A DNA stretch of 64,000 bases from positions 136,501 to 200,500 of the forward strand of contig JAKAIX010000002.1 in assembly GCA_021814165.1 (NCBI GenBank), read 5' to 3'. Position numbers and translations under genes: made by a program. Source of the DNA: a bacterium (lineage in GTDB: Bacteria > Patescibacteriota > Minisyncoccia > UBA6257 > GWB1-50-10). Of this stretch, positions 14,241 to 63,818 are shown piece after piece (positions within the stretch are counted from its first letter, which is position 1; every line of letters begins with the position of its first letter). Under the pieces are notes generated by a model. That model was not told where the DNA came from. It worked only from the letters and a program-made list of their open reading frames with translations, and did not search any database.

Positions 14241-14296
14241 GTTCGGTATTGGAGGCTGAGCCTCCGCGAGTAGGAAGCTCAGCCTCCCTGTTTTAA

Positions 14297-14381
14297 TATG
14301 GTGCCCCCGAGAGGATTTGAACCTCTAACTCTTTCGAGACAGCGTCCTAAGCGCTGCGCGTATTCCAGTTCCGCCACGGGG
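14297..14381 (-). tRNA. tRNA-Leu, anticodon UAG, type II with a long variable arm; CCA is encoded.
   Basis: The reverse complement folds as acceptor GCCCCCG/CGGGGGC, anticodon stem CAGCG/CGCTG with loop CTTAGGA, T-arm AGAGG-TTCAAAT-CCTCT, discriminator A, then CCA. Confidence 0.85.
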
Positions 14382-14427
14382 GCTCTTTTTTCCTCATTCT
14401 ATGCGCTTTTTCGCCCCAAGACGAGGT

Positions 14428-14456
14428 TTGACAAAAAGCTGTTTTAGTGATAGAAT
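14428..14456 (+). promoter_or_regulatory. Near-consensus sigma70-type promoter (TTGACA-N17-TAGAAT) driving the downstream low-GC cassette.
   Basis: TTGACA at 14428-14433, a 17-nt spacer, and TAGAAT at 14451-14456. It lies about 95 nt upstream of the first cassette ATG, which has an AAGGTAGGAG RBS. Confidence 0.5.
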
Positions 14457-14553
14457 ACAGCCAAGTAAACTTAACAGCTTAATATTGGTTGCAACGCGGA
14501 ATGGCTGAAATGAAATTAAATTAATTGAATAAATAACTAAGGTAGGAGCCTTT

Positions 14554-15153
14554 ATGAAGGTATTAAAGAAAAAGATTTTTCCCGTAACCAGCCTAGCAAT
14601 AGACTGGGTCCTTACGGAGGAAAATCAGGTTGGCGATTTCTGGGAAATCAAGGGCATTGCTCTTGTAAAAGACCCCAGGAGAAAACCCGCCAAAGACATA
14701 AGTATCAAATTCTTCCTTGACGGGAAAGAATACGAATCTGCAGAAAAAACGGATAATGATGGCCGTGCTGTGAAAACTTTTTCCGGCTTGTCATCAGGAA
14801 GTCATTCGTTTGAAGTATTGATTGTAGGGACCGCAGTAAGAAAGGTCTGCTCAAAGGGTTTTAAGGGACAATCAAAAAGTCCCGCGAAGCTTCTTTGGAA
14901 GCAGTCTGGAAAAAGTGGAAATTATGTAATTTTCTTCCAGGTTCTCACCGCAGATAATAAACCGGCTAAGAATGCCGTTATCAAGATATTGGATAAAACA
15001 ATCGAAGAAAGTTTTTCCAAAAATCTTGATCCTACCGATAGTAACGGAACCGTATCCATGAAAGTGGACTTCTCCGAAGGAGAAAAAAGAAGAGACATCA
15101 TCGCTATGGTGATAGGTTCCGAAATTAGAGAAAAAATTCATTTATTCAATTGA
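14554..15153 (+). CDS. Hypothetical 199-aa protein, cassette gene A, with two beta-rich repeats and no recognisable domain.
   Basis: Complete ORF with a strong RBS. Its codons are A/T-ending, unlike its neighbours. Internal repeats are ...KFFLDGKEYESAEKTDNDGRAVKTFSGLSSGSHSFEV... and ...KILDKTIEESFSKNLDPTDSNGTVSMKVDFSEGE... Confidence 0.65.
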   Translation: MKVLKKKIFPVTSLAIDWVLTEENQVGDFWEIKGIALVKDPRRKPAKDISIKFFLDGKEYESAEKTDNDGRAVKTFSGLSSGSHSFEVLIVGTAVRKVCSKGFKGQSKSPAKLLWKQSGKSGNYVIFFQVLTADNKPAKNAVIKILDKTIEESFSKNLDPTDSNGTVSMKVDFSEGEKRRDIIAMVIGSEIREKIHLFN

Positions 15154-15165
15154 AGGAGATAAAAA

Positions 15166-15669: not shown

Positions 15670-15670
15670 A

Positions 15671-16783: not shown

Positions 16784-16818
16784 TACGCTGATACGGATTT
16801 ATTTGTAATTAATAAAAT

Positions 16819-16860
16819 GAAGGTCTTATTCGAAATTTGAATGAGACCTTCTTATTTTTT
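16819..16860 (+). terminator. Rho-independent terminator closing the cassette.
   Basis: GAAGGTCTTATTC-gaaattt-GAATGAGACCTTC is a 13-bp stem with one G.U pair, followed by TTATTTTTT. Confidence 0.65.
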
Positions 16861-16932
16861 ATACACATGACGACAACTAATATAGGGAGGCCGGACTTCC
16901 TGACGGAGGTCCGGCCTCCAGAGCCCCCATGA

Positions 16933-18486
16933 CTACAGTCCGTACGTGTAAGGGATAGCGATTAGAAAGCCCCACACAGAAAGAATTCCTATTACGCCAT
17001 ACGCGAGCATCCGCGTGCGTTTTGTTTTATTCTCGAGCCAGCGCGTAATAAGCGTTGCAAGGAGCGCAATTGCAAGAAGAAGTGCGGGAAAGTAGTGATA
17101 TAAAAACGTCGCGCGTGTTACAAAAGTGAAAAACGGAAGGAGCGCGAACACGTACCCAAAAAGAAGAATCGCGATCGGATTTTCCTTTTCATCATACGTC
17201 GCGCGCCGCGCGATTCGCTTAATATATTTAAAAAGCGTCCCAAGGACAACGAACGTACTCGCAACCCATATAAATATGTTTCCTATGAGCATAATATCGC
17301 CGCTACTCGTAAAACGCATTGGTTTCATCATAAAGGGCCAGAGATACCATGGGCTCATCATCGGGTTCGTGCCTCCCACGGTGTAGCCGGCGACCCCAAG
17401 AAGAAGCTGATACAACGATGCCTTCATAATCGAAGGATTCGCGGTTATGTTCGGAATATTAAAGAGCGACCCCATAACGGAAAGTTGTTCGCTGGGAGTA
17501 AAAAGCAAACCATTAATGCCGACGAAAAGAACAAGAAACACGGCTATTGCAAAGCCGAAGAAGCGGAGCATATCGCGATGCTGTCGTTCTCGCGTGAGAA
17601 TATTTTTTAGAACTAATGCGACGACGATCGGCCCCGCAAACACGACTGCGGTGAGTTTTATGCTTACGGCGAGGCCGAAGAAGATCGCAGATAGTAGTAA
17701 ATTGTGCGGCCAATACCACCGAGAAAATGTGCGCTCCGGGGCGCCTGCCTGCGCAGGCAGGCTTGGCAACGTCTTACCCACTTTTTCTCCCGCACCAATC
17801 CCTTGCCGCACGCCGGCATTTTTTTTGAAGAAAAAGTAGAGCGCGAGGAAACCTAATGAGAGATATATCCCATCCATAAGAATAAGGCGTGTATCGAGAA
17901 GAAGCGCGTTCTCGAGCGTGACGAAGAAAGCAGTAAGAAGCGCGGCGCTGTCACCCGCGAGCTCCCGGACAAAAAGGAACACGGAAAAAATAAGGAGGAG
18001 CCCGAAGAGCGCGCTCACCATCCTCTCCATTACATAAGGGAAGCGTTCATACGGCTTGTCAATTCCTTTTGTAGTGAACGATGTCCCATCGGGTGTTTTT
18101 TCATTTACTACATATGTAGCCTCTGTAAGATCGTTTTTGTCGTAGAAAAAAAGAGGGACGGAATAAAGGAATCTCCCGAGGGGAGGATGAATATCGAAAT
18201 AAGGAACATGAAGTGCGTTATCCGCGGCATATGTTGCGAAATACGCCTCATCGAAAACGGGGTGGCTGGGCGTACCAATACGCACGAGGTGCAACGCAGC
18301 GCTTAGGAGAAGGATGAGAGAGAGGATAAGAAACGGATGACGGACAAAACAAGGAGACCCGGCTTCCCCTGCCTGCGCAGGCAGGTCGCGGAGGCCGGGT
18401 TTCCCCGACGACAATATATGGAAGCCCGGCTTCCTCGCGGAGGCCGGGCTTCCTATGTTACTTTCCCTACTTTCCCTGGAGAACAT
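16933..18486 (-). CDS. GT39/GT83-family (PMT/ArnT-like) integral-membrane glycosyltransferase. Its N-terminal cytoplasmic tail is encoded by repeat elements.
   Basis: The first-loop motif is VFDEAYFATYA...HPPLGR, the DE-motif typical of PMT/ArnT. It has more than 10 TM helices. The first roughly 45 codons overlap copies of the GC-rich hairpin repeat and palindrome (GKPGLRDLPAQAGEAGSP). The real start may be a downstream in-frame TTG. Confidence 0.7.
   Translation of the reverse strand: MFSRESRESNIGSPASARKPGFHILSSGKPGLRDLPAQAGEAGSPCFVRHPFLILSLILLLSAALHLVRIGTPSHPVFDEAYFATYAADNALHVPYFDIHPPLGRFLYSVPLFFYDKNDLTEATYVVNEKTPDGTSFTTKGIDKPYERFPYVMERMVSALFGLLLIFSVFLFVRELAGDSAALLTAFFVTLENALLLDTRLILMDGIYLSLGFLALYFFFKKNAGVRQGIGAGEKVGKTLPSLPAQAGAPERTFSRWYWPHNLLLSAIFFGLAVSIKLTAVVFAGPIVVALVLKNILTRERQHRDMLRFFGFAIAVFLVLFVGINGLLFTPSEQLSVMGSLFNIPNITANPSIMKASLYQLLLGVAGYTVGGTNPMMSPWYLWPFMMKPMRFTSSGDIMLIGNIFIWVASTFVVLGTLFKYIKRIARRATYDEKENPIAILLFGYVFALLPFFTFVTRATFLYHYFPALLLAIALLATLITRWLENKTKRTRMLAYGVIGILSVWGFLIAIPYTYGL
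18355..18453. repeat. Composite of two GC-rich hairpin repeat units, one with the palindrome CCTGCCTGCGCAGGCAGG nested in its loop.
   Basis: gacccggcttcc-CCTGCCTGCGCAGGCAGG-tcgc-ggaggccgggtttcc, then gaagcccggcttcc-tcgc-ggaggccgggcttcc. Related copies lie at 14251-14289, 16885-16919, 18793-18897, 38995-39036, 43507-43525, 48032-48065, 54350-54386, 54932-54966, 62206-62261 and 63758-63776. The palindrome alone is at 17744-17761 and 50194-50211. Confidence 0.8.
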
Positions 18487-18760
18487 TGTACGTGAGGGGG
18501 TAGATTGCCGTTGCGAGGAGTGCTACCGCCGCGGCAATACAGGCGTAAAGCACCATTCTTTTTGCCTTCGTCACTCTTTCCCGGTCGCCGCCCGCAGTCA
18601 GGAAAAGAATGGCGGCCCAGATAAGCGCTCCTACCGCGAGTATCCAGAACGTGGTGTAAAGGAAGTTCACTATCCTATATACCGAGCTTTCAACTTGGGT
18701 GAGCGAAGTAAGCGAGGATTGTTGCGCATGCGCGACGAGAATTAATGGAATCAGTTTCAT
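18467..18760 (-). CDS. VirB2/TrbC-like pilin-family small protein, paralog 1: signal peptide plus two TM helices.
   Basis: 97 aa with a signal peptide, then TM1-LTAGGDRERVTKAKRMV-TM2. Its size and topology match T4SS pilins, and it shares a loop motif with three neighbours. Confidence 0.5.
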   Translation of the reverse strand: MKLIPLILVAHAQQSSLTSLTQVESSVYRIVNFLYTTFWILAVGALIWAAILFLTAGGDRERVTKAKRMVLYACIAAAVALLATAIYPLTYNVLQGK

Positions 18761-18792
18761 GATTTTATTGTACTACATGGCTTCTAAAATTA

Positions 18793-18897
18793 GGAGGCCG
18801 GGTCTCTGACCGAGTTTTCTCGCGGACAAAGTACTAGCAACTAGCCCGACCTCCATATATTAAGAAAGCCCGGCTTCCTCGCGGAGGCCGGGCTTCC
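18793..18897. repeat. GC-rich hairpin repeats in the spacer between pilin-like genes 1 and 2.
   Basis: ggaggccgggtctc...gcccgacctcc, plus gaagcccggcttcctcgcggaggccgggcttcc, the same unit as at 18421-18453. Confidence 0.75.
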
Positions 18898-18917
18898 ACT
18901 TTAAAAAACAAAAGAGC

Positions 18918-19292
18918 TTATGAGAGCGTTCCGCTCAAGGCGCTCTTCACAATCGTTTGTAATCCGGTTGAAAGAAGCGCAATCGCTGCGGCGATAATAG
19001 CGTAGATAACCCTGTTTTTTGCCTCCTTTATCTTCTCTTCGTTTCCTGCGCCGGTAAGATAAAGAACTGCCGCCCAGATAAGGAAGAGAACAGTCAAAAC
19101 CCAGAAGATGACAATCACCCAGTTTACGATAGTCGCCAAACTTGACGTCGCCCCCGACAAAGAGGAGACGGGCGCCTGGTTCTGAACGGTACCGCTAGGA
19201 CCGACAGGGCCCGTTTGCGCCAACGCTGCGAGAGGCGAGAGCATACTCACTGCGAGTGCTGTTGCGGCGATTGCTTGTAAAGTTTTTTTCAT
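18918..19292 (-). CDS. VirB2/TrbC-like pilin-family small protein, paralog 2.
   Basis: The ORF track extends to 19523. I prefer the ATG at 19292 (MKKTLQAIAATALAVSM...), which has an AAGGAAA RBS and leaves a signal peptide plus two TM helices with loop LTGAGNEEKIKEAKNRV. Confidence 0.5.
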   Translation of the reverse strand: MKKTLQAIAATALAVSMLSPLAALAQTGPVGPSGTVQNQAPVSSLSGATSSLATIVNWVIVIFWVLTVLFLIWAAVLYLTGAGNEEKIKEAKNRVIYAIIAAAIALLSTGLQTIVKSALSGTLS

Positions 19293-19324
19293 GTGTTTCC
19301 TTGTTGTTGCTCGACCTTTTGGAG

Positions 19325-19723
19325 CTACTGGACGTTCAGCACGTCTCTGATGATCGAAACCATGCCCCAACCTATCACGATTATAGCATACCCGATTGCG
19401 GTGTAAAGAATTGTCTTCTTTCCCGTTGCAAAACGTTCCGGATTCCCTCCCGCGAAAATCATCTGGAACGCTCCGATAAGCATCATGCCGACCGCGATGG
19501 GAGTTGCGATTGTAATGAGCCAATCGACGATATTTTTCAGAAGATCTTCAAAAGTCGAAGCGCCGAGCGGATTGGTTAGGGGAGCGGTAGGCTGGATGCA
19601 GTTGGTGGTTATGGTCGCGTCACACACGGTCGTAATCTCTGCTTGAGAAACGTTAGGAGAAAATAAAAAGATTCCCAGGCCAAACAACAAGATGAGCACG
19701 AATAGCGAAAAAAACCTTCTCAT
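19325..19723 (-). CDS. VirB2/TrbC-like pilin-family small protein, paralog 3.
   Basis: Signal peptide MRRFFSLFVLILLFGLGIFLFS, a Cys/Thr-rich segment, two TM helices, and loop FAGGNPERFATGKKTIL. Confidence 0.5.
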   Translation of the reverse strand: MRRFFSLFVLILLFGLGIFLFSPNVSQAEITTVCDATITTNCIQPTAPLTNPLGASTFEDLLKNIVDWLITIATPIAVGMMLIGAFQMIFAGGNPERFATGKKTILYTAIGYAIIVIGWGMVSIIRDVLNVQ

Positions 19724-19727
19724 ATTC

Positions 19728-20144
19728 TTATGTTATATTGTAGCATTGAATATCGGCCCACGGAAAGTCAACCTTGCCGGTAATAAGGTGAAGCACGGTA
19801 TTGATGATGAGCCATCCCGCGAGCACGATCACAAGACCTATCACGGCGCTCGTAATGATTCCCTTCCCCTTTCGTACTCGTTCTTCCGACCCGCCCGACA
19901 CCATAAGCATAATCGCTCCGTAGATGGTCATACCAACCGCAAGGATGATCGCGACCTCGGTCATTGTATTGATGATATTAGCCGCCACCTTGACGCCGTC
20001 GCAGAGCGAACACCCCGCAGCGGATTTGTTGCATCCCCCTCCCGACGTTCCTTTCCAGATGTCGATAAGGGCTGCGGAAGAAACGCCGAATGTCATAAAA
20101 AATAGGATCGGAGCGAGGACAAAAGATCTGACTTGCTTTTTCAT
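19728..20144 (-). CDS. VirB2/TrbC-like pilin-family small protein, paralog 4.
   Basis: I placed the start at MKKQVRSFVLAPILFF, immediately after the stop of the upstream gene (TAAcATG coupling). It has two TM helices and loop VSGGSEERVRKGKGII. The ORF track start at 20201 would overlap the upstream gene. Confidence 0.5.
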   Translation of the reverse strand: MKKQVRSFVLAPILFFMTFGVSSAALIDIWKGTSGGGCNKSAAGCSLCDGVKVAANIINTMTEVAIILAVGMTIYGAIMLMVSGGSEERVRKGKGIITSAVIGLVIVLAGWLIINTVLHLITGKVDFPWADIQCYNIT

Positions 20145-20145
20145 G

Positions 20146-21453
20146 TTAGTAATTTCGCTGAATGATTTGATTGATGGCATTTTGCGCTGCCACAAGCGCA
20201 TCTAACGGCCTTTCTTTGTCCGACACGACTGCGCGGACCATCTGCGAGAATACCCTTCTCGCGGCATTTTTGTCCCGTTCGTCCCACGATCGCGCGATCA
20301 ATGCCTGCCGGGCGAATACGCTGAGCGTCGGATCGTTTTGATATTGATAAAGAAGCGAATTTAATGCCGGAGGCTTCCCTGTTTGCGCCGGGTAACTGTT
20401 GGCAATAACGGCGTTTGTCGTCATTTGGAGGATAAAATCCCACGCAATCGTCGGATATTTGGTTTGCCGTGAGACAACATACCCCCAGTAATCGGGAAGC
20501 GCGATCGGCGTCACGGCATTTTTCGGCTGGGGCACCGGCGCGATCTCGAAATTCAGATATGCATTCCTTGCCTTGAGTTCTGGAATGGAAGAGGCATAGT
20601 CGAAAATCATGGTAACTTTTCCCTGACCGAATGCATCTCTTGCGTTCTGCATCGAATCGTTCCATGTGTAGGCCCTGGAGTTCGGATCGGCGAACTGCGT
20701 GTAGAACGTGAGCGCCTGAAGCCCGAGTTCTCCCGAAAACGAAGGCGCTCCGCGTTCCCCGATCTTGGATCCGTTTTGGAGCATGAGGAGCGAGAGGAGA
20801 TCCGAGCCGGTAGGAATAGTGTCGTCGGTTCCCCCGATGGCCGCTCCCGCCTGCGTAATCGCGCCTTTTGCATCTTTTGTTACGAGTTTCGGCACCGTAT
20901 TCAAGAAATCTTCCCAGCTCTGCCATGAATTAGGGAGCGGAACCCCCGCACGATCGAAGAGATCTCTGTTATAGATAAGCGCGAGCGTATCGATCGAGAG
21001 TGGCAGTCCGTATATGTTGTTTTGTTGATAGAAATCCTGCGTGACGACTTGTGGGAAAAGTTGTTTCAGTTGGAGCAAAGAAAGGGATGTCTGCGGCACA
21101 GGCATGATCTTGTTAATCTGTCTCGGTACGTCGGTGTTCCGTATCATGAAAATATCGGGGCCGGTCCCCGCCGCGAGCGCGTCAAGCAACGCCGCGTCGT
21201 AATCGGAAGGATTTGAAAATCCGCGGTACGTGATTTTTACATTCGGGTAGATGGTCGCGAAGTTTTGGAGTGCAGCCGAATAAGTTACCTCATTGTCGTA
21301 CACGCCCCACATCGTAAGCGTCGCCTTTGTCTGGTGCGGATCGTTCGTCGTGGTACGGAGCCCGGGGATAACGCCCAATAGTACGAGTACGATCGCAATC
21401 ACGACCGCACCGCCGATAAGGAGAACAACTTTTTGAGAATGAGTTAATGACAT
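20146..21453 (-). CDS. ABC-transporter extracellular solute-binding protein (family 1, sugar/oligosaccharide-type), N-terminally anchored.
   Basis: An N-terminal TM/signal anchor, then an SBP_bac_1-like sequence (...MWGVYDNEVTYSAALQNFATIYPNVKITYRG...). The overlapping ORF 20141..20926 is an alternative frame of this gene. Confidence 0.7.
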   Translation of the reverse strand: MSLTHSQKVVLLIGGAVVIAIVLVLLGVIPGLRTTTNDPHQTKATLTMWGVYDNEVTYSAALQNFATIYPNVKITYRGFSNPSDYDAALLDALAAGTGPDIFMIRNTDVPRQINKIMPVPQTSLSLLQLKQLFPQVVTQDFYQQNNIYGLPLSIDTLALIYNRDLFDRAGVPLPNSWQSWEDFLNTVPKLVTKDAKGAITQAGAAIGGTDDTIPTGSDLLSLLMLQNGSKIGERGAPSFSGELGLQALTFYTQFADPNSRAYTWNDSMQNARDAFGQGKVTMIFDYASSIPELKARNAYLNFEIAPVPQPKNAVTPIALPDYWGYVVSRQTKYPTIAWDFILQMTTNAVIANSYPAQTGKPPALNSLLYQYQNDPTLSVFARQALIARSWDERDKNAARRVFSQMVRAVVSDKERPLDALVAAQNAINQIIQRNY

Positions 21454-21530: not shown

Positions 21531-24053
21531 TTAGAGACATACGATTCCCACCAACGTATCCCCCTTCTCGAGATTCATGATTTTCACCCCTTGTGTTGCG
21601 CGGCTCAAGATTCGTATATCCTTCAGGTTTGCGCGGAGTGCCTGGCCTTTTGAGGAGAATGCGAGCACCCCCTCCACTTCCTCGTCCACGATATGCGCCC
21701 CGATCACGGGGCCTGTCTTTGCGGTAATCTTTGCGGTTTTGATTCCCGATCCGCCCCGGCGCTGAAGTTTGTACTCTTTTATGGAAGTTTGTTTCGCAAA
21801 TCCGTTCGCCATTACCGCGAGCACCCGGAGTGAGATTTTGCTCCCCTTCTCCAAATCCTCTTTTCTTATTATATCAAGTCCGCTCACCGCATCTTGTTTC
21901 TTGAGGTTCAGCGCTCGCACTCCCGCCGCACTCCTTCCCATGCTCCGCACGTCTTTTTCTTTAAAACGGATCGCCTGTCCCATCGCCGTAACGAGTACGA
22001 TTTGATCATCGCCGCTTGAAAGGCGCACCCACTCCAAGAGATCTCCGCCTTGGAGTCTAACCGCGATGATGCCGGTCCTCCGCACGTTCCCGAAATCCTC
22101 GAGCGGCGTGCGTTTAATGATGCCTTGTCGCGTCGTCATGACGAGAAAGTGTTTGGCGTGTTCCGCCTTGTCTTCGATGTAGTGCTGGGGGTAGGTGACA
22201 ACCGCGCTCACCTTCTCGTTTGTGGGAATATCGAGAAAGTTATAGACCGACTTTCCCTTTGCGGTGCGACTTGCAACGGGAACCTCATACACTTTTGTTT
22301 GAAACACCCGCCCCTTCGTTGTGAAGAAAAGGATATTATCGTGAGTGTCCGCCGAAAGCAGTTCGTAAATCTGATCCTCCTCCTTCAAGTCAAAGCCGAT
22401 AAGCCCCTTTCCCCCGCGCTTCTGCACGCGGAACGTTCCCGGCGGCATGCGTTTGATGTAGCCGTCTTCGGTAAGAGTGATAAGCGCCTCTTCCTTGGGA
22501 ATCAGATCCTCTTCTTTAAATTCCTTGAGTCCGCCCGCGATAATGCCCGTGCGTCTCGGGTCGGGAAATCCTTTCTTCAGCTCTTCGAGGTCGCGCTTAA
22601 TTATACCGAGAATTCGTTTCGGTTCTTTAAGAATGAGTTTCAATTCCGCAATAAGTTTTTTCTTCTCCTTGAGCTCGTCCTCGAGCCTCTGCCGCTCGAG
22701 CGCCGCCAGGCTCTGGAGTTTCATCTCGAGGATCGCGTCCGCTTGAATGGGGGTAAGCTTAAAATTCTTTACCAGGTTTTCCCGGGCATTTTCTTTGTCC
22801 TTCGATTTTTTGATCGTGGCGATGATCTTATCGATTACGCCCAAGGCCTTCACAAGGCCTTCCAGAATGTGTGCCCGCTCCTCCGCCTTCCTCAGTTCAA
22901 ATTCCGTGCGGCGGCGGATCACGATCTTTCTATGGTCGAGATATGCGCTCAAAATATCTTTTAAGGAAAGAATCTCGGGTTTCAAGCCGTTCGTCAGAGC
23001 GAGCATATTGTAATGGAAATTCTTCTGAAGCTCTGTATATTCGAAAAGCTGGTTCAATATACGCTGTGCTCGCACGTCGTTTTTGAGTTCAATAACAATC
23101 CTCAATCCTTCTCGGTCCGATTCGTCCCGCACATCCTTGATCCCCTCGATTTTCTTTTCCTGCACGAGTTCCGCAATTTTCGTGATTAAGGTCGACTTAT
23201 TCACCTGATACGGGATCTCGGAGACGACGATCTGGAAACTTCCGTTCTTGCGCTCTTCTATCTCGGTTTTCCCTCTGGTGGTAATGGATCCCTTCCCTGT
23301 CGCGTAGGCCTCCTCAAGCGCGCGGCGGTCGTACACAATGCCGCCCGTCGGGAAGTCGGGTCCTTTCACAAACTGCATAAGTTCTTTTACGTCGCTCCCC
23401 GGGTGATCCGCGAGGTGAATGGTCGCATCGGCGATCTCGACGAGATTGTGCGGCGGAATGGAGGTTGTCATGCCGACCGCGATGCCTACCGCTCCGTTCA
23501 AGAGGAGATTTGGAAGTTTTGCCGGAAGGAATCCCGGCTCCTCGCGCGTCGCGTCATAGTTCGGTACCCACTCGACGGTTTCTTTTTCGATATCCGTGAG
23601 AAGTTCCTCGGAAATTTTCGAGAGGCGCGCTTCCGTGTATCGCATCGCTGCGGGGGAATCGCCGTCGATCGATCCCCAGTTCCCTTGCCCGTCGATCAGT
23701 GTGTAGCGAAGCGAGAAATCCTGCGCCATGCGCGCCATCGCGTCATAGACCGCCATATCGCCGTGCGGGTGATAGCGGCCGAGCACCTCCCCTACCACGT
23801 TCGCCGATTTTTTGAATTTCGCGCCGTGCGTAAGACCGGAGTCCCACATCGCCCACAAAATTCTCCGTTGCACGGGCTTCAATCCGTCCCGTACGTCGGG
23901 AAGCGCCCGCGAAACGATCACCGACATCGCGTAGTCGAGATATGATTCGCGGAGTTCTTCGGTAATCTCGCGCGGTTCAATGCGCTGATTCGGGGTATTG
24001 GGCTCTTCGTGTTGTTTGTTATGTGGCATAGTGTGTCGTTTCGATTGTAACAC
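21531..24053 (-). CDS. gyrA: DNA gyrase subunit A.
   Basis: [25 protein letters not shown]...[19 protein letters not shown] contains the catalytic Tyr region, followed by C-terminal beta-pinwheel repeats. Confidence 0.95.
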
Positions 24054-29944: not shown

Positions 29945-30015
29945 TTAATTATCAATTTCCAATTTTCAGTGAATTTCAAAATTTTAGAATTGAAAAATTA
30001 ATTGAACATTGATCA

Positions 30016-38990: not shown

Positions 38991-39037
38991 AATTATCGAG
39001 GCCGGGCCTCGATAGATTGAAGCCCGGTCTCGGGGTT

Positions 39038-43467: not shown

Positions 43468-43569
43468 ACAGACCCATTAAAGCAGAAAAATGAACACATC
43501 CCAATCTATCGAGGCCGGGCCTCGATAAAAAAGTGGATAACTTCAAGAAGCCAAACCACTTTTGTTTGT

Positions 43570-48013: not shown

Positions 48014-48125
48014 TTATCAGATCGTGTGTTTAGAGGCCCGGCTTCATTTGGGAAGCCGGGCCTCCTTATTTTGAATAAAAATAAACAAGCGCCGATCTCA
48101 AAACTCGAGATGGCGCTTGTTGATG

Positions 48126-48793: not shown

Positions 48794-50350
48794 GTGAAAG
48801 CTCTCGACTTCAAAAATAAAAAGGTGCTTATCATGGGTCTCGGGACGCTCGGCGGAGGAATCGCAAGCGCGAAGTGGTTCGTCTCGCAGGGCGCAAAAGT
48901 AACGGTGACCGACTTGCGTACAGAGAAGAGATTGAAAAATTCTCTTGAAAAGCTCGGGTATTTTAAGAATCGAGATCTTAAGGGGGGCACTATGACGCGT
49001 CATAGTGCGCATAAGGAAGTTGTAGAATTTGTGTTGGGGAGGCATAGGGTTCAAGATTTTAAAAATAACGATATTATCGTCGTGAACCCCGCCGTACCGC
49101 GGGAGAGTAAGTATCTCGCAATAGCGAGAGAAGAGGGGAAAGTTATTGTGAACGACGCGAGAGTATTTTTCGATTCGGCACGGAATCCGATTATTTCCGT
49201 AACCGGTACAAGGGGAAAAACCACTACTACAAACTGGATTGCGCATTTCCTGAAATCGAAGTATCCGGATACGATCGCGGGAGGCAACTCGTCGAAGGAA
49301 GCCCTCCTCTCTCTTGTCGAAAAACTGAAAAACAAAAGAGCGCCCGTCGTAGTTGAGCTTTCCTCATGGCAGCTTGAACTTTTAGATAAATCGTCTCGTG
49401 GCCCCGATGTGGCGGTCATTACCAATATCTACCCCGACCATCTGAATCGTTATAAGAACATTCGGGACTACGCCTCGGCGAAGGCAAATATTTTTTCAAA
49501 CCAGACGAGATCGCAAAAGCTCGTTCTGAATCTCGATAATCCGTGGACGAAGTTCTTTCTCTCGAAAAAACCAAAGGCGAGAGCGTACTTCTTTTCCCTG
49601 AAACCGCTTTCAAAAGGTAAGCAGGGGATATTTGTTTCGAACGATCGCGTGATCTTGAAAATCGGCAGGCAGGAAAAAATTGTCCTTGGAGAAAAAGAAT
49701 TTAAGATATTACGGACCAGGGGAGAACACAATGTGCAGAACTTCCTCGCGGCGTCGCTCGCGGCGTCGCTTATGGGGATTTCGAATGATGCGATACGAAA
49801 GAGAGCGAGAACGCTTCCCGAAATCCGGTACCGGGAGGAAATCGTGTTTAGGGAAAAAAAACTCCTCGTGGTAAACGATTCGGCAGGCACCTCTCCCGAT
49901 GCGGTAATCGCGGCGATCAGGCGTTTTAAAAACCGGGGAGATTTGATATTAATTACCGGCGGTACGGACAAGAATCTTGAATTCAGTCCGCTCGCGAGGG
50001 AAATAAAGAAGACGCTGAAACCCAAGCAGGTATTTTTTTTGAATGGCAGCGCAACAAAGAAACTGATTAAAGAATTGAGAGCGCTTCGATACTTCCCGAA
50101 AACTGGTCCAAGGATTTTCGAAAGCCTACCCGAAATCTTGAAGGGAATCAGGGATAGAGAATTAGGTATTAAAAAACGGGAATCAGGAATTAGCCTGCCT
50201 GCGCAGGCAGGGAATCAGGAATTAGGGACGCGATTTGTAATTCTTTTCAGCCCGGGGGCGGCGAGCTTTGAAAAGTTCAAAAACGAATTCGACAGAGGTG
50301 AGAAGTTTGATATATACTTGAAGAAACTTTTCGAGGTGGGTGGTGTTTAA
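48794..50350 (+). CDS. murD: UDP-N-acetylmuramoyl-L-alanine--D-glutamate ligase.
   Basis: N-terminal Rossmann MKALDFKNKKVLIMGLGTLGGGIASAKWF, the Mur ligase P-loop VTGTRGKTTTTNWIAHFL, and the C-terminus FSPGAASFEKFKNEFDRGEKF. It carries in-frame repeat insertions. Confidence 0.8.
   Translation: MKALDFKNKKVLIMGLGTLGGGIASAKWFVSQGAKVTVTDLRTEKRLKNSLEKLGYFKNRDLKGGTMTRHSAHKEVVEFVLGRHRVQDFKNNDIIVVNPAVPRESKYLAIAREEGKVIVNDARVFFDSARNPIISVTGTRGKTTTTNWIAHFLKSKYPDTIAGGNSSKEALLSLVEKLKNKRAPVVVELSSWQLELLDKSSRGPDVAVITNIYPDHLNRYKNIRDYASAKANIFSNQTRSQKLVLNLDNPWTKFFLSKKPKARAYFFSLKPLSKGKQGIFVSNDRVILKIGRQEKIVLGEKEFKILRTRGEHNVQNFLAASLAASLMGISNDAIRKRARTLPEIRYREEIVFREKKLLVVNDSAGTSPDAVIAAIRRFKNRGDLILITGGTDKNLEFSPLAREIKKTLKPKQVFFLNGSATKKLIKELRALRYFPKTGPRIFESLPEILKGIRDRELGIKKRESGISLPAQAGNQELGTRFVILFSPGAASFEKFKNEFDRGEKFDIYLKKLFEVGGV
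50180..50225. repeat. 18-nt palindrome CCTGCCTGCGCAGGCAGG inside murD, flanked by a 14-nt direct repeat (gaatcaggaattag).
   Basis: gaatcaggaattag-CCTGCCTGCGCAGGCAGG-gaatcaggaattag. It translates in-frame as SGISLPAQAGNQELG. Confidence 0.8.
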
Positions 50351-51753: not shown

Positions 51754-54000
51754 CTACCACTTCTCGATCATAAGGAGTGATGACGTGTCGGGGAATTCCC
51801 GATAGATTGTTTCGGTGATGAAAGGAAGAAAGGGATGAAGCAGCTTCAATGATTCTCTGAGCGTATAAAAAAGGATCGCCTGCGTATTTTTCTTGAGTTT
51901 TTCGTCTTCCATCTGTTTTTTGGATATCTCGAGATACCGATCGCAGAACTCGTGCCAGAAGAAGTCATAGAGTTCATGGAGCGCTCTTGAAAACTGGAAC
52001 GACTCGATGTATTTCCCCGTGTTCTTTTTCGTTTTTTCGAGCGCTTTCAATATCTTTGTGTCCGCCTTTGTTTTTGCGGTTGGTTTCTTGTTCAAATTCG
52101 CGGACTTCAGATCTTTCGTTTGTTCCAGAACAAACCGGCTCGCGTTCCAGATTTTGTTGGTAAACTTTCTTCCTGCAATGACAGCCGCCTCGTCCCATCG
52201 GATGTCCTGTCCCGATGCCTGCCAGATGACGGCAAACCTTGTTGCGTCCGCGCCGTATTCGTCAACATACTTCAGGGGATCGATCCCCGTTCCGAGCGAT
52301 TTTGACATCCGTTTCCCGTCCTTTGTAAGCACCGTTCCGTGAATAAGCACGTTCCGGAAGGGGATATTTCCCATAAACTCGAGTCCGGAGAAAATCATGC
52401 GCGTATCCCAGAGATTCAGGATTTCGCGCGCATTCGAGACGAGATTTCCGGGATAGTATTTCTTCCGATCCTCTTTCGAAAGTCCCGCGAAAGGCCAGAG
52501 CGCAGATGAAAACCAGGTATCCAGAACGTCAGGCGATTGCTCCATGTCACATTTTTTACAGAACGGACACGTCTTCGGCTTTTCTTTTGCCACAACAAAT
52601 CCTCCCGTGTTTTGAGTTTCGTTTTCAGAATTTCGCGTTTGTTTATCATTTGGAATTTGGAATTTGGAATTTGCTTCCTGTTTATTTTTACAAAAATAAA
52701 CAGGAAGCTGGTGCCCCCACCAAATCTGTCTCGAAATCGTCCAGTCCTTGATATTCGAAAGCCACGAGCCATATGTTTTTTCGAAATTTTTCGGTTGAAT
52801 AATCACCTTTTTCTTCTTCACAACATCCAGCGCCTCTTTCGCGAGTCGCTCCATCTTCAAAAACCACTGTGTCGAGGGGATCGGTTCGATCGCGTGTCCG
52901 CAACGGTAGCACACCGCAAGGTTGTGCCCATATGACTCTTCTTTTTCGAGAAGCCCGACCGTCTTCAGATCTTCCACAATCTTCTTTCGTGCATCCTCCG
53001 TTTTCATCCCCGCATACTTTCCAGCCTTCTCGTTCATTCTTCCGCGTTCGTCGATCACCTGCACGAGCGGCAGGTCGTGCCGATTGCCGATCTCGAAGTC
53101 GGTCAGGTCGTGCGCGGGGGTAACCTTTACCGCGCCCGTACCGAATTCCCTGTCAACGGCTTCATCGGCGACCACGGCAATCTTATTTTTCTTTTTTACG
53201 GGCGTGTCGAGCGAACCGTCCACCGAGAGCGACTCGATTTCGAGTTCTTTCCCGACATACTGTTTATACTTGGGGTCGCGCGGGTGAACCGCAATTCCCG
53301 TATCGCCGAACTTCGTCTCGGGACGAGTCGTCGCAAGCGTGAAAGGGCCGTATTTGATGTAGTAGAGCGTCGTCTGTTCCTCCTTATACTCAAGTTCGAG
53401 ATCCGACAAACTTGTCTGGCATCGCGGACACCAGTTTACGGTGCGGAGACCGCGGTAGAGCATACCCTTCTCGTAGTAGTGAATAAACGCGTCGATAACA
53501 TCCGCGGCATAAGCATCGTCCATCGTGAAGCGCGCGCGCGACCAGTCGGCCGAGAGCCCGAGTTTTTTAAGTTGTTCCAGGATCTTCCCGCCGTACTCCT
53601 TCTTCCATTCCCATACGCGCTCGATGAACTTCTCCCGTCCCAGATCGAAACGCGTTTTACCTTCTTTCTTCAACTGTTTTTCGACGACATACTGTGTCGC
53701 AATGCCCGCATGGTCCGTACCGGGAAACCAGAGCGTTCGTACTCCTTTCATTCGGTAATACCGAATGAGAATATCAGGAGTCGTGTTATCCAAGGCATGT
53801 CCCATATGAAGCGTTCCCGTGACGTTCGGGAGGGGCATGTACACAACATAATTTTCAATTTTCAATTTCCGATTTCCAATTTTGCGAATAGGAAGATTGT
53901 CCGGATTGAAATAGCCGGATTTTTCCCATAGGTCATAGATTTCCGATTCGGTTTGTTTTGGATCGTAGGGTTTCGAAAAATCAGCGCCCATAGCCCACAT
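51754..54000 (-). CDS. valS: Valyl-tRNA synthetase, compact and without a long C-terminal coiled coil.
   Basis: MPLPNVTGTLHMGHALDNTTPDILIRYYRMKGVRTLWFPGTDHAGIATQ aligns with ValRS. The KMSKS motif is present (RMSKSLGTG). It carries two in-frame repeat insertions. Confidence 0.85.
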   Translation of the reverse strand: MWAMGADFSKPYDPKQTESEIYDLWEKSGYFNPDNLPIRKIGNRKLKIENYVVYMPLPNVTGTLHMGHALDNTTPDILIRYYRMKGVRTLWFPGTDHAGIATQYVVEKQLKKEGKTRFDLGREKFIERVWEWKKEYGGKILEQLKKLGLSADWSRARFTMDDAYAADVIDAFIHYYEKGMLYRGLRTVNWCPRCQTSLSDLELEYKEEQTTLYYIKYGPFTLATTRPETKFGDTGIAVHPRDPKYKQYVGKELEIESLSVDGSLDTPVKKKNKIAVVADEAVDREFGTGAVKVTPAHDLTDFEIGNRHDLPLVQVIDERGRMNEKAGKYAGMKTEDARKKIVEDLKTVGLLEKEESYGHNLAVCYRCGHAIEPIPSTQWFLKMERLAKEALDVVKKKKVIIQPKNFEKTYGSWLSNIKDWTISRQIWWGHQLPVYFCKNKQEANSKFQIPNDKQTRNSENETQNTGGFVVAKEKPKTCPFCKKCDMEQSPDVLDTWFSSALWPFAGLSKEDRKKYYPGNLVSNAREILNLWDTRMIFSGLEFMGNIPFRNVLIHGTVLTKDGKRMSKSLGTGIDPLKYVDEYGADATRFAVIWQASGQDIRWDEAAVIAGRKFTNKIWNASRFVLEQTKDLKSANLNKKPTAKTKADTKILKALEKTKKNTGKYIESFQFSRALHELYDFFWHEFCDRYLEISKKQMEDEKLKKNTQAILFYTLRESLKLLHPFLPFITETIYREFPDTSSLLMIEKW
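52651..52708. repeat. Three TGGAATT heptamers plus a perfect 16-17-bp hairpin (gcttcctgtttattttt / aaaaataaacaggaagc) inside valS.
   Basis: catttggaatttggaatttggaatttGCTTCCTGTTTATTTTTacaAAAATAAACAGGAAGCtgg. The minus-strand translation is ...FCKNKQEANSKFQIPNDKQ..., lying between Cys pairs of ValRS. Confidence 0.75.
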
Positions 54001-54043: not shown

Positions 54044-55177
54044 CTATAAGTTTAAATTCGCTTGCGCGGTGATCCTTTTATTCTTTTTTCGAAGATAGGA
54101 GATATATCCCGCGACGCCGATCATAACGCCGTTGTCCGTATTGAAGTCCATTGGAGGCGCGATAAAACCAATCCTCATTTTTTTACTCGTAGCTTCCAAC
54201 TTCTCGCGGAGCGAGGCGTTCGCCGCGACGCCGCCGGAAAGAAAGATCGATCTTGCTTCATATTCTTTTGCCGCACGCGTCGCCTTCGTGACGAGCACAT
54301 CGAGCGCCGCTTCTTGAAATGAAGCAGCGACATCCGCTTTCAATTTCCTGGAGGCTGAGCCTCCTACTCGCGGAGGCTCAGCCTCCTTTCTATCTCGCAG
54401 GTAATAAAGTACAGATGTTTTGAGGCCGGAGTAGCTGAAATCATAACTCTTGTCATGAATCATCGGTCGCGGAAATTCAATCGCATGAGAATTTCCTTGT
54501 TTCGCGAGTTTCTGAATTTCCGGACCGCCGGGATAGGGAAGGTCGAGCATTTTTGCGACCTTATCGAACGCCTCGCCGACCGCGTCGTCTCTTGTTTCCC
54601 CGAGTTTCTTCCACTTCGTGAGTGAATCCATCTTTAGAAGTATAGTGTGCCCCCCGCTTACGATAAGCGCAATTGCTGGAAAAAGTTTTCGTTTTGAAAA
54701 TTGAAAATTGTCCTCCGAAGGAGGATCCGCCTCCGGTGGAAAAATTGAAAATTCAGCTTTTTGCTTCAGTAAAAAGCTGTAGAGATGTCCCTCCAGATGG
54801 TTGACGCCGATAAGTTTGAGTTTCGAGTTTTTCTTCTTTAGATTTTTGTACAGCTCTTTTGCAAAATTGACGCCCGTCCAGAGTGCCGGTTCAAGGCCGG
54901 GACCGACAGTGACGGCGATCGCGTCCAATGCGAGGAGGCCCGGCTTCTTACCGGAGGCCGGGCCTCCAACTAATTCCTCAAGTACGACCGGAAGATTCTT
55001 CAGGTGTTCCCGTTTTGCGAGATTCGGTACCACGCCACCCCACGGACGGTGTACTTCAATTTGAGATGAGATTACGTTCCCCAGAATCTTGAATTGCGGC
55101 GCACTAAGCCCCCCCGTCGCTTCGAGTAATGCGAGAGCTGTTTCGTCACAACTGGTCTCTATGGCTAAGATTCTCAT
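54044..55177 (-). CDS. tsaD: tRNA N6-adenosine threonylcarbamoyltransferase TsaD (Kae1/YgjD).
   Basis: MRILAIETSCDETALALLE, the HLEGH metal site, and ...VSGGVAANASLREKL. It carries three in-frame repeat-derived insertions. Confidence 0.9.
   Translation of the reverse strand: MRILAIETSCDETALALLEATGGLSAPQFKILGNVISSQIEVHRPWGGVVPNLAKREHLKNLPVVLEELVGGPASGKKPGLLALDAIAVTVGPGLEPALWTGVNFAKELYKNLKKKNSKLKLIGVNHLEGHLYSFLLKQKAEFSIFPPEADPPSEDNFQFSKRKLFPAIALIVSGGHTILLKMDSLTKWKKLGETRDDAVGEAFDKVAKMLDLPYPGGPEIQKLAKQGNSHAIEFPRPMIHDKSYDFSYSGLKTSVLYYLRDRKEAEPPRVGGSASRKLKADVAASFQEAALDVLVTKATRAAKEYEARSIFLSGGVAANASLREKLEATSKKMRIGFIAPPMDFNTDNGVMIGVAGYISYLRKKNKRITAQANLNL
54350..54386. repeat. GC-rich hairpin repeat (ggaggctgagcctcc-N8-gaggctcagcctcc) embedded in-frame in tsaD.
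   Basis: It is the reverse complement of the intergenic copy at 14251-14289, and encodes EAEPPRVGGSAS inside TsaD. Confidence 0.75.
54688..54754. repeat. AT-rich direct repeat (gaaaattgaaaatt, two copies) flanking a small GC hairpin, in-frame inside tsaD.
   Basis: ttttgaaaattgaaaattg-tCCTCCGAAGGAGGatccgCCTCCGGtgg-aaaaattgaaaattcagc. It encodes EFSIFPPEADPPSEDNFQFSK on the minus strand. Confidence 0.7.
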
Positions 55178-62190: not shown

Positions 62191-62205
62191 CAAAGTTTGA
62201 AAATC

Positions 62206-62261
62206 GGTCTGAGGCCCGGCCTCCGAGACCTGCCTGCGCAGGCAGGGGAAGCCGGGCCTCA
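62206..62261. repeat. Hairpin repeat with the nested palindrome; it doubles as the terminator downstream of the 607-aa surface-protein gene.
   Basis: ggtctgaggcccggcctcc-gaga-CCTGCCTGCGCAGGCAGG-ggaagccgggcctca, followed by TCGGTTTTTATTC. Confidence 0.7.
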
Positions 62262-62314
62262 TCGGTTTTTATTCATTCGTTGTAAGTTTCGGGTTATTTG
62301 TTTAGAATCTCCTT

Positions 62315-63691
62315 ATGGATTCGTTCGAAAAAATTGCGAGCCTAGCGAAGAGAAGAGGGTTCATCTATCCCGGTTCCGAAATTTACGGCGGGCTCGCGGG
62401 TACGTGGGATTACGGCCCGTTGGGTGTTGAGCTGAAACGGAATCTCAAGAACGAATTTTGGCGATCGATGGTGCAGCTTCGCGATGATGTGGTGGGTATC
62501 GATGCGGCAATCGTGATGAGCCCGAAAGTATGGGAGGCATCCGGACACCTTGAGTCATTTGCCGACCCGCTTGTGGAGTGCAAAAAATGCCACCATCGAT
62601 TTCGTCCGGACGAAATCGCAAATTCTAAATCCGAAGCACCAAATCCTAAACAAATTCGAAATTCAAAATCGGAAATTAAAAACAAAAACGAGGAACTGCG
62701 ATGCCCCGAATGTGGCGGCGAACTTACTGAGCCGAAGCAGTTTAATCTGATGGTTGAGACGTACCTCGGTGTCGTCGAGGGAGAAAAGCTAAAAACGTAT
62801 CTCCGCGGCGAGATTACGCAGGGCGTACACGTGAATTTCAAGAACGTGCTCTCCTCGACGCGCGTAAAGCCGCCGTTCGGGGTCGCTCAGATCGGGAAGG
62901 CGTTCAGAAACGAAATCACGCCGGGCGGATTTACCTTCCGATCGCGCGAATTCGAACAAATGGAGCTCCAGTTCTATACGAAACCGGACGAGGAAGAATC
63001 AATGAAGTGGTTCGAGTACTGGAAAGAGGAACGTCTTACGTGGTATCTCTCCCTCGGCGTTAAAAAAGAAAACCTTCATTTCAAAGAGCACGCGAAAGAC
63101 GAGCTCGCGCACTATGCGCGCGCCGCATTCGACATCGAATATCGGGTGGACGGCGTATGGAAAGAGATGGAAGGAATCCATCATCGCGGCGATTGGGACG
63201 TGAAACGCCATCAGGAGTCTTCGAAAGAAGATATGACATACTTCGATGAAGAGACGAAAGAGCGTTACCTGCCGTACATCGTCGAAACGTCGGGGGGGGT
63301 GGACCGGGCGGCGCTTTTTCTTCTCATCGACGCCTACGAAGAGGAGAAACTCGAAGGAGGGGACGAACGAACGGTGTTGAAGCTTCACCCGAAACTCGCG
63401 CCCTACAAAGCGGCGGTGTTTCCGCTTCTCGCAAACAAGCCGGATCTGGTAAAACTCGCGAAGACGATTTACGACGATTTGAAGAGAGAGTTTATGGTAA
63501 CGTGGGATGATCGCGGTAATATCGGAAAGCGTTATCGAGCGCAGGATGAAGCCGGAACCCCCTTTTGCGTTACCGTGGACTTCGACAGCTTGGAAAAGCA
63601 CGACGTCACCGTCCGCGACCGCGACTCGATGAAACAGGACAGGGTTTCCATTAAAGAACTCAAGAGTTATTTCTCAAAAAAATTGGAGTAG
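62315..63691 (+). CDS. glyQS: Glycyl-tRNA synthetase, alpha2 dimeric type.
   Basis: RRGFIYPGSEIYGGLAGTWDYGPLGVELKRN (motif 1), a zinc-knuckle insertion, and a C-terminal anticodon-binding domain. It has an in-frame AT-rich repeat expansion. Confidence 0.9.
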   Translation: MDSFEKIASLAKRRGFIYPGSEIYGGLAGTWDYGPLGVELKRNLKNEFWRSMVQLRDDVVGIDAAIVMSPKVWEASGHLESFADPLVECKKCHHRFRPDEIANSKSEAPNPKQIRNSKSEIKNKNEELRCPECGGELTEPKQFNLMVETYLGVVEGEKLKTYLRGEITQGVHVNFKNVLSSTRVKPPFGVAQIGKAFRNEITPGGFTFRSREFEQMELQFYTKPDEEESMKWFEYWKEERLTWYLSLGVKKENLHFKEHAKDELAHYARAAFDIEYRVDGVWKEMEGIHHRGDWDVKRHQESSKEDMTYFDEETKERYLPYIVETSGGVDRAALFLLIDAYEEEKLEGGDERTVLKLHPKLAPYKAAVFPLLANKPDLVKLAKTIYDDLKREFMVTWDDRGNIGKRYRAQDEAGTPFCVTVDFDSLEKHDVTVRDRDSMKQDRVSIKELKSYFSKKLE

Positions 63692-63818
63692 TTGGGGGCC
63701 TAACCCCGTTGTTTGTTATTTATAACACTTCCCTTCCGATCGTAGCATGAGTGTTATATCGAGGCCGGGCCTCGATAGATTTGGTGTTCCCCAAAAAAGA
63801 GGGTATGATGCTCGTTAT

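Follow-up and report, generated by a model that had tools for sequence, protein, structure and literature searches.

How do GC-rich hairpins come to stand both behind genes and, in frame, inside them, and do such hairpins belong to a single kind of element? The question is raised by a 64,000-nucleotide (nt) stretch of a Patescibacteriota genome (positions 136,501 to 200,500 of contig JAKAIX010000002.1, assembly GCA_021814165.1), referred to below as the window, within which the census of copies, their coordinates, and their gene context were determined. The hairpins lie in intergenic spacers and in tsaD, murD, and a GT39/PMT glycosyltransferase gene. The original prediction described them as one family of mobile hairpins of the repetitive extragenic palindrome (REP) type or the MITE (miniature inverted-repeat transposable element) type. 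All sequences that it quoted were found in place, and the dispersed hairpins are real: we counted ten hairpin doublets, among them two with a perfect 18-nt palindrome that we call PAL, and three single palindromes. The window, though, holds three separate things that had been merged: doublets that are old and conserved in position, PAL, which is independent of them and is found in many phyla, and, in 5' leaders, single palindromes. With a probability of roughly 0.6, we read these sequences as small noncoding palindromic modules that were inserted and that fall into at least two independent kinds, with PAL separate from doublets that are specific to one clade, and with a third class that may be regulatory.

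The window has a GC content of ∼50% and contains 42 GC-rich palindromic 15-mers compared to ∼21 in shuffled sequence. The nearest named TsaD matches are metagenome-assembled genomes (MAGs) of Parcubacteria/"Candidatus Jorgensenbacteria." The same DNA, in reverse complement, forms approximately 84.1 to 148.1 kb of contig DAIBYO010000002.1 (340 kb) in MAG GCA_027423885.1. Pfam annotations of the called genes are those of ordinary housekeeping genes and include no transposase, and several genes have no Pfam match. DNA was compared with three syntenic relatives, L006, L007, and L152.

Hairpin doublets

A doublet consists of two 15-nt arms, GGARGCC-S-GGCYTCC, separated by 4 to 7 nt, for a total of 34 to 37 nt. 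Each arm is itself near-palindromic, begins with GGAG, GGAA, or AGAG amid variable neighboring bases, and has a center base complementary to that of the other arm (C...G or G...C). The arm GAAGCCCGGCYTCC has 31 matches in the window at up to two mismatches, where 1.5 are expected; a match near 46377 was rejected as a family copy because it is a chance match. The ten doublets include two composites with PAL at the arm/loop junction, which have the same architecture in opposite orientations. They are as follows, with the strand given for copies in coding sequence.

14251-14287: CTSAG variant, GGAGGCTGAGCCTCC-GCGAGTA-GGAAGCTCAGCCTCC; intergenic, with the stop of a XerC/D-like recombinase gene (14240) on one side and the 3' end of a minus-strand tRNA (14302-14383) on the other
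16886-16919: doublet 14 nt past the GT39/PMT stop, between convergent genes
18353-18404, minus strand: composite of doublet and PAL (18368-18385), translated in the N-terminal tail of GT39/PMT; DNA fold of -19.8 kcal/mol
18420-18453, minus strand: doublet GGAAGCCCGGCTTCC-TCGC-GGAGGCCGGGCTTCC in the N-terminal coding region of GT39/PMT, read as GSPASARKPGF; just past the stop of the upstream pilin-like gene; fold of -17.3 kcal/mol, z = -4.9
18793-18854: doublet with a long loop, intergenic, between pilin-like genes
18864-18897: intergenic doublet past the stop of the pilin-like gene at 18918
48032-48065: doublet 19 nt past the H+-PPase stop, followed by TTATTTT, between convergent genes
54350-54386, minus strand: doublet at tsaD site 3, translated as EAEPPRVGGSAS; fold of -19 kcal/mol
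54934-54967, minus strand: doublet at tsaD site 1, translated as GGPASGKKPGL
62210-62261: composite of doublet and PAL (62229-62246), 20 nt past a stop at 62190 and followed by GGTTTTTATT; -23.1 kcal/mol

The intergenic doublets behind the H+-PPase gene, the GT39 gene, and a gene for a 607-amino-acid (aa) protein, and those between the pilin-like genes, occupy orthologous positions in L006, L007, or L152 and differ there by compensatory changes. The 16886 doublet differs from its L152 ortholog (7485-7518) in two compensatory pairs, the 18864 doublet differs from its own (5619-5652) by a compensatory G:C to A:T change, and among the 48032 doublet and its orthologs in L006 (9147) and L007 (17974) the center pair flips between C:G and G:C. 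The loop of the 18793 doublet holds ∼29 nt of extra inserted sequence relative to the orthologous hairpin in L152.

An alignment of 15 doublet copies from the window and the three relatives (A3) was used to assess covariation. In the 15-bp helix between the arms, 96.4% of the cells are paired, six pairs have changed on both sides, covering 20 cells, and the covariation score was reached by none of 500 shuffles. The 15-bp hairpin is maintained by paired, compensatory changes. The alternative, in which each doublet would form two short hairpins or serve as tandem operator sites, was rejected because pairing within arms shows no covariation; four copies have lost symmetry within the arms and retain pairing between them. 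As single-stranded DNA, doublets have a predicted stability of -14 to -19 kcal/mol, and the composites bearing PAL reach -20 to -23 kcal/mol. One column pair of the alignment, 12-26 (e.g., 18431/18442 in the window), is a weak position, with T.G or C.A in 11 of the 15 copies, and in most copies the sense mRNA would bear a C.A mismatch.

The doublets are specific to this Parcubacteria clade. The arm motif has no exact match in the PAL-bearing loci of other lineages, and two related metagenome contigs (Ga0082335_1000059 and Ga0209514_10000169) contain 7 to 8 arms per 12 to 14 kb, which indicates that the family is abundant in the clade. In viral contigs, a pattern for the doublet lacked specificity, and what it matched were ordinary terminators of GC-rich phages.

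The intergenic copies had been placed where terminators would be expected. This holds for their position, as most follow stop codons directly (14251, 16886, 18864, 48032, and 62210, together with the single palindrome at 38993), but T-tracts are inconsistent, with a clear T-rich tail only at 14251, 48032, and 62210. A terminator role for the intergenic doublets is plausible on these sequence features.

Insertions in tsaD and GT39/PMT

The extra segments of TsaD are true insertions, as had been proposed: in a comparison of 25 orthologs, the shortest (336 aa) lack all three insert sites. The closest relatives (78 to 83% identity) have diverged versions of sites 1 and 3, and other lineages have quite different low-complexity inserts in the same loops. 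All three segments are alignment gaps relative to solved TsaD structures, and in the AlphaFold model (mean pLDDT of 83) they are the coil regions of lowest confidence (site 1, residues 71 to 81, and site 2, both with pLDDT of <50; site 3, residues 264 to 275). The peptides given in the original prediction for the TsaD, MurD, and GT39 inserts are correct. Site 2 had been overlooked.

54693-54757, minus strand: tsaD site 2, with a 30-nt GC-rich core, TCCACCGGAGGCGGATCCTCCTTCGGAGGA, at 54711-54740; the region reads FSIFPPEADPPSEDNFQF

The GC core of site 2 is set in an AATTTTC heptamer tract, and the DNA of L006 and L007 has a clean 30-nt gap in its place. Site 1 is occupied by a GC doublet in the window and L006 and by an AT-rich heptamer hairpin in L007. 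Site 3 has a doublet in the window, L006, and L007, of the CTGAG/CTCAG type in the window and of the CCCGG/CCGGG type in the relatives; window and relatives are separated by six paired substitutions and a loop change. The site 3 copy is identical at 36 of 37 positions to the unlinked intergenic copy at 14251. This near-identity, combined with the six paired differences from the orthologs, points to sequence exchange or replacement between copies within the genome.

The GT39/PMT gene likewise carries insertions, in agreement with the original prediction: distant orthologs have neither the N-terminal tail nor LPAQAG, the peptide encoded by PAL. Relative to L152 and the orthologs, ∼105 nt comprising two doublets and one PAL have been inserted after approximately codon 11. 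The start codon is conserved in L152 DNA and in the orthologs and overlaps the stop of the upstream pilin-like gene. Since this conserved start lies upstream of the inserted hairpins, the N-terminal tail is really translated.

Directly upstream of GT39/PMT, and translationally overlapped, are four tandem small genes with T4SS_pilin (PF18895) matches (18467-20200). The gene content suggests a glycosylated pilin locus, with doublets between its genes.

PAL, an 18-nt palindrome

PAL (CCTGCCTGCGCAGGCAGG) has four exact copies in the window, at 17744, 18368, 50194, and 62229, where shuffled sequences give an expectation of none, and no degenerate copies at up to four mismatches. As previously noted, it occurs both inside hairpins, in the two composites listed above, and alone.

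17744-17761, minus strand: PAL inside the GT39/PMT coding sequence, read as LPAQAG
50180-50225, plus strand: PAL (50194-50211) in murD, read as LPAQAG, with GAATCAGGAATTAG flanking it on both sides

Empty sites show PAL to be a clean insertion. Relative to L152, the GT39 copy at 17744 is an exact 18-nt addition (...CCAAG^CGCC...) without target-site duplication (TSD), and the site has the same length in both genomes once PAL is removed. The composite at 62210 corresponds to a hairpin in L007 (5592-5625) that lacks PAL, so that here too 18 nt were cleanly inserted, at the arm/loop junction. In ∼95 kb of relatives' DNA there is no exact PAL; a copy with one mismatch occurs in a relative of the window organism (L183:7203).

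The murD copy is less simple. The exact 14-nt direct repeat around it is real, but the suggestion that it resembles a TSD fails: the flanks, GAATCAGGAATTAG, are part of an AT-rich heptamer tract, a preexisting (GAATCAG GAATTAG)x2 array that PAL has split, and PAL sites generally have no TSD. The murD genes of L006 and L007, the only relatives compared and both close ones, have neither PAL nor the flanking repeat and carry AT-rich heptamer hairpins there.

To determine the distribution of PAL, one genome per GTDB species was scanned for exact matches. PAL was found in at least 119 genome stretches. Among the first 80 matches listed, 47 are from the candidate phyla radiation (CPR), including WWE3, Microgenomates, Saccharibacteria, Paceibacteria, and others; the other matches listed include Bacteroidota (among them the isolate Litoribacter ruber), an Ignavibacteria-type isolate, MAGs labeled Gammaproteobacteria, and Terriglobia. 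The flanks are unrelated between sites. As 13 of its 18 positions are G or C, the number of chance matches, estimated by hand from base composition, is ∼1 for a database of 40% GC and ∼9 for one of 50%; at least 95 unique sites lie in loci of <50% GC. In viral contigs PAL was found in 25 stretches; of two control palindromes matched to it in composition, one had 0 matches and the other 3. Point variants of PAL also occur, some of them with symmetric double changes.

Coding status was judged by open reading frames (ORFs) of at least 150 codons. In low-GC genomes, coding copies are read as LPAQAG in 41 cases, PACAGR in 10, and CLRRQ in 3 (P = 1e−10), and 43% of the sites fall beyond long ORFs. 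In the window, LPAQAG is the reading of all three coding copies. This bias excludes an artifact and indicates selection on the translated product. Among the papers searched, we found none that contains the PAL sequence or describes it, and none that brings together in-frame palindromic repeats and Parcubacteria.

Several further features of PAL loci were observed. In a number of CPR genomes, PAL lies at approximately position 9/10 (...TCR^TCTAATGG...) of a tRNA-Gln-like 5' fragment or second tRNA copy (L034:1735, L044:3540, L045:6792, L049:372, and L116:728; also L100:4643/6119 and L126:538). These fragments adjoin an intact tRNA-Gln downstream of mgsA, and there are similar cases with tRNA-Thr and tRNA-Ala. 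Either the place is a hot spot for site-specific insertion, or PAL went in long ago and the 18-mer stayed unchanged while its flanks diverged. A second palindrome, TCCGCCAGCTGGCGGA, is absent from the window and recurs in PAL loci of different lineages (L072:2080, L088:1716/7274, L103:7451, L111:4963, L113:5739, and L118:5471), often nested in the loop of another hairpin; its recurrence suggests a class of palindromes to which PAL belongs. PAL is also found in Fe/Mn superoxide dismutase genes of three genomes at three positions (L086:4948, L123:2393, and L084:7807), above our expectation for one gene among ∼144 sites. In Bacteroidota, it occurs within longer conserved repeats (..GGAACACGGAA-PAL-TTTGTCAAAGAAGG..; L011:153, L050:3050, and L061:3091; L019:5638 and L108:6298), which a Saprospiraceae MAG and the isolate Litoribacter ruber have in common and which have no Rfam match.

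Insertion site preferences of PAL

TSD lengths at PAL sites equal those of the shuffled control, apart from three exceptions (7, 14, and 14 nt) in tandem repeat tracts, one of them in murD; the only others with flanking repeats of 7 to 14 nt are L087 and L098. A purine precedes PAL in 86% of the sites, and a pyrimidine follows it in 80%. Because the preference for a pyrimidine at +1 holds even at the synonymous third position of a Gly codon, it points to a preference of the mechanism rather than to selection at the protein level. Direct repeats shared between the two 30-nt flanks are enriched (matches of at least 6 nt, 34% versus 13%), as are inverted repeats (at least 7 nt, 15% versus 4%). 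PAL lies at the center of other hairpins in L071, L075, and L083 and within a heptamer tract in L087.

AT-rich tandem repeats with a 7-nt period (AATTTCC, AAATCCT, ATTTGGA, AATTTTC, and others) form ten arrays in the window, with repeats at 4620-4660, 6678-6709, 6749-6797, 30001-30031, 31704-31726, 52648-52673, 53850-53883, 54694-54710, and 62652-62677. Several are inside ORFs, namely, those for RrnaAD, LeuRS, a HisRS-like protein, and TsaD. Such tracts host PAL and the GC core and make AT-rich hairpins in the tsaD and murD genes of the relatives. In this clade, the tracts resemble one more layer of insertion or expansion.

Single palindromes in 5' leaders

The third class consists of single palindromes of 19 to 21 nt (TATCGAGGCCGGGCCTCGATA), each 45 to 70 nt upstream of a start codon. 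Their sequence, TATCGAGGCCSGGCCTCGATA, shares a GAGGCC-S-GGCCTC core with the doublet arms.

38993-39032: single 21-nt palindrome TATCGAGGCCGGGCCTCGATA plus a partial arm, between the FtsK stop (39038) and the start (38933) of the HTH_25 gene at 38265-38933, ∼70 nt upstream of that start
43507-43527: single palindrome ∼50 nt upstream of an RNase T-like start (43467, minus strand), in a divergent intergenic region
63757-63777: single palindrome in the 5' leader of an M16 peptidase gene, 44 nt upstream of the likely start at 63821

These palindromes may be operators or leader hairpins. The 63757 copy is conserved at the orthologous place in L007 (4071); a coding status for it was rejected, since the M16 start lies at 63821. 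The M16 gene call itself (447 aa; 63747-63821 region) probably starts too early, as judged from L007 homology and the typical N terminus MKEVKRIKLKNGLRV.

A proposed mechanism for insertion, and its weak points

On the reading of these sequences as insertion modules, the doublets would have been inserted long ago, mostly right behind stop codons, where they resemble terminators or hairpins at the 3' end. A few would have landed in coding DNA, in the tsaD loops and at the GT39 N terminus that overlaps the upstream stop, and would persist there because the frame is kept and flexible surface loops of Gly, Pro, Ala, and Ser are encoded. PAL would enter as an exact insertion of 18 nt, or six codons, between a purine and a pyrimidine without duplicating its target, and would prefer sites where single-stranded structure can be extruded, e.g., the loops of hairpins and tandem repeats of heptamers. 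Selection would then keep mostly intergenic copies and those in the LPAQAG frame. Both modules may be mobilized in trans by an activity on single-stranded hairpins, either HUH/Y1-like or of the repair/template-switch kind. Precise entry into structure-prone DNA without TSD would resemble HUH/Y1 single-strand transposition, as in REP with its REP-associated tyrosine transposase (RAYT) and in IS200/IS605, and also the entry of the cyanobacterial small dispersed repeat SDR5 into the HIP1 palindrome.

For PAL itself we tentatively go further, with the odds somewhat against us: it could be a horizontally spreading 18-bp element that has no coding capacity, no terminal inverted repeats (TIRs) or TSD, and no linked transposase, that inserts at R^Y in single-stranded loops by a trans-acting or repair activity, and that occurs across CPR and other phyla, possibly at tRNA-like sites. 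If so, no mobile DNA module described in bacteria would be smaller or more widely shared than PAL, and proteins would have gained LPAQAG loops from it again and again. Movement without an element-encoded enzyme would mean an undescribed mechanism of insertion into hairpin or single-stranded DNA, and movement between lineages would mean unnoticed sequence exchange among CPR, their neighbors, and possibly viruses. CPR genomes are tiny and thought to be streamlined, yet this one tolerates nested palindromic insertions inside the essential genes tsaD and murD, which makes it a natural experiment on protein loops that accept foreign peptides. The modules vary and inflate protein lengths, mislead gene callers (as at the M16 and GT39 starts), and are usable as strain markers.

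A number of observations weigh against this reading. Compensatory changes also arise, without selection, from quasipalindrome template switching, and doublets that are old and fixed in position suit a function equally well as selfish DNA. The search for a cognate enzyme gave no Pfam match to Y1/RAYT (PF01797) or IS200/IS605 among the called genes of the window; the window has a XerC/D-like tyrosine recombinase gene (13353-14240) beside the 14251 hairpin. No recombinase or transposase recurs near PAL, as all-versus-all clustering of ORFs from 144 PAL loci returned housekeeping families only, and the idea that PAL represents abutted ends of insertion sequences (IS) was rejected because no element has PAL half-sites as termini. 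A 90% protein cluster of MurD has two members, both of which carry LPAQAG, giving no presence/absence polymorphism within the population, and a metagenome search for a murD allele lacking PAL found none. Most of the viral PAL matches are in high-GC contigs and have no frame bias, so they carry little weight, and part of the high-GC matches in general may be due to chance. Freedom from stop codons in all six frames was rejected as a signature of the modules: it is not significant, as 69% of 18-mers of the same composition share it and several doublets have stops in some frames. Finally, the taxonomy used for MAGs is that of their database records.

Alternative explanations

Of the competing explanations, the one that survives best, although we consider it unlikely, is that the hairpins are functional elements of the host, with doublets acting as terminators or stabilizers of mRNA 3' ends, single palindromes as operators, and intragenic copies as regulatory sites or terminator read-through. 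Six doublets 10 to 25 nt after stops, at least three of them followed by T-rich tracts, would fit such roles, as would the filling of the same positions in three or four species with compensatory changes between them, the three single palindromes 45 to 70 nt upstream of starts with one of them conserved in L007, and the GT39 N-terminal insertion exactly behind the stop of a pilin-like gene. A host function does not account for hairpins in the middle of an essential gene (tsaD sites 1 and 3), for different element types in the same tsaD loop in different species, or for nesting, in which PAL or other sequences are inserted in hairpin loops. It is also at odds with unlinked copies that are near-identical (36/37), with T-tracts that are inconsistent, and with PAL in unrelated genes and phyla. 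Because co-option of mobile hairpins as terminators is frequent, a host function is partly compatible with an origin by insertion.

The perfect 18-bp dyad of PAL, typical of sites for dimeric proteins, raises the question of whether PAL is the recognition sequence of a DNA-binding, uptake, restriction, modification, or homing protein that has spread by recombination and selection for the site. Uptake of DNA is something on which CPR bacteria depend, and PAL stays constant next to diverging flanks, as five CPR species show in their tRNA-Gln-like fragments. We judge this improbable, and more so than a host function, given that uptake signals accumulate by substitution while PAL appears as clean 18-nt insertions, that no candidate protein is linked to PAL, and that its spread across phyla disfavors uptake specific to a lineage.

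Slightly less probable still is that nothing moves and that replication slippage and quasipalindrome template switching keep producing the inserts in situ within permissive loops. The insert sites are hot spots filled with different low-complexity or heptamer-derived sequences in each lineage, the window has its ten period-7 arrays, PAL flanks are rich in local repeats, and quasipalindrome correction mimics compensatory evolution. Repeated de novo origin cannot produce an identical 18-mer with unrelated flanks at at least 95 unique low-GC sites, however, nor near-identical 37-nt hairpins at unlinked loci, and PAL is not templated by its flanks.

That PAL is a sequencing or assembly artifact, an adapter or linker palindrome, is suggested by its exact, synthetic-looking form in MAGs of many studies and is scarcely credible in view of its unchanged positions in assemblies made independently from other runs (Logan L002 and L003 versus the NCBI MAG), its strong frame bias, its natural point variants, its occurrence in isolate genomes, the copies common to related species and to related viruses, and the absence of the sequence from the papers searched.

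Comparison with known repeats

The elements work like Rickettsia palindromic elements (RPEs), REP doublets forming hairpins (REPINs), or cyanobacterial small dispersed repeats (SDRs), but REP/REPIN, MITE, and RPE each have at least one defining feature that they lack.

RPEs are palindromic repeats found in frame in unrelated housekeeping genes and also in intergenic regions (Ogata et al. 2000, 2002, summarized in PMC10969869). Like them, the copies in tsaD (three sites), murD, and GT39/PMT (two places) are in frame and translated as extra surface segments compatible with function. RPEs are ∼100 to 150 bp long, form Rickettsia-specific families, and are not nested, unlike the modules of 18 to 52 nt in CPR described here. 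The modules are set apart from RPEs by size and host, and PAL also crosses phyla.

REPs are short GC-rich palindromes, of which a doublet of inverted units forming a long hairpin is the replicative unit (PMC3116915, PMC3733652); they have an unpaired GTAG or CGTC tag, are extragenic, and flank a RAYT gene (PMC3733652, PMC3116915). Window doublets resemble REPINs in that inverted units form one long hairpin, often behind genes and without TSD. The assignment to the REP/MITE type nevertheless does not stand. No GTAG/CGTC tag is present in the flanks of any copy, no called gene of the window has a Y1/RAYT Pfam match, and many copies are intragenic: 5 of the 13 GC-hairpin copies are in coding sequence, and the doublets at 18353, 18420, 54350, and 54934, the tsaD GC core, and two PAL copies are coding and translated. 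MITEs have TIRs matching an IS, a TSD, and a length of ∼50 to 500 bp; the window elements are 18 to 52 nt long with clean empty sites, and none has TIRs or TSDs.

SDRs are said, in work by Elhai et al. in 2008, to be dispersed modules of 21 to 27 nt with hairpin potential that lie within one another and within tandem heptamer repeats. To our knowledge, no transposase has been assigned to them, and neither insertion in frame in essential genes nor a distribution across phyla has been reported. The likeness lies in a tiny module precisely inserted without TSD in palindromes or heptamer repeats (PAL in doublets; PAL and the GC core in heptamer tracts) and in nesting (PAL in doublets; the 29-nt insert in the 18793 loop). 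SDR5 is reported to insert between nucleotides 3 and 4 of the HIP1 palindrome. SDRs differ in being restricted to heterocystous cyanobacteria and apparently in sequence.

In Volvox mitochondrial and plastid DNA, selfish palindromic repeats are short and GC-rich and lie in spacers and occasionally in coding sequence, with no recognizable transposase or TSD known (PMC2670323). They differ from the window elements in being organellar, in sequence, and in not being common to distant lineages. Rho-independent terminators and the Streptococcus pneumoniae SPRITE, a terminator-like mobile element (PMC3184786), share with the doublets a GC-rich hairpin directly behind stops, in some cases with a T-tract; the window copies differ in occurring also in coding sequence and 5' leaders, in their inconsistent T-tracts, and in having arms that are themselves palindromic.

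Other observations

Rfam searches of the window and of noncoding PAL sites returned only tRNAs. Two differences between the window and its relatives concern other genes. GyrA of L152 (L152:1-3039) is 1,223 aa long with an intein-splicing domain, and that of the window (21531-24053) is 832 aa long without one, so that an intein is present or absent between close relatives. LeuRS of L006 (3131-5353) is called as two ORFs of 522 and 214 aa rather than one, and this split may be due to a frameshift, a sequencing error, or an insertion.

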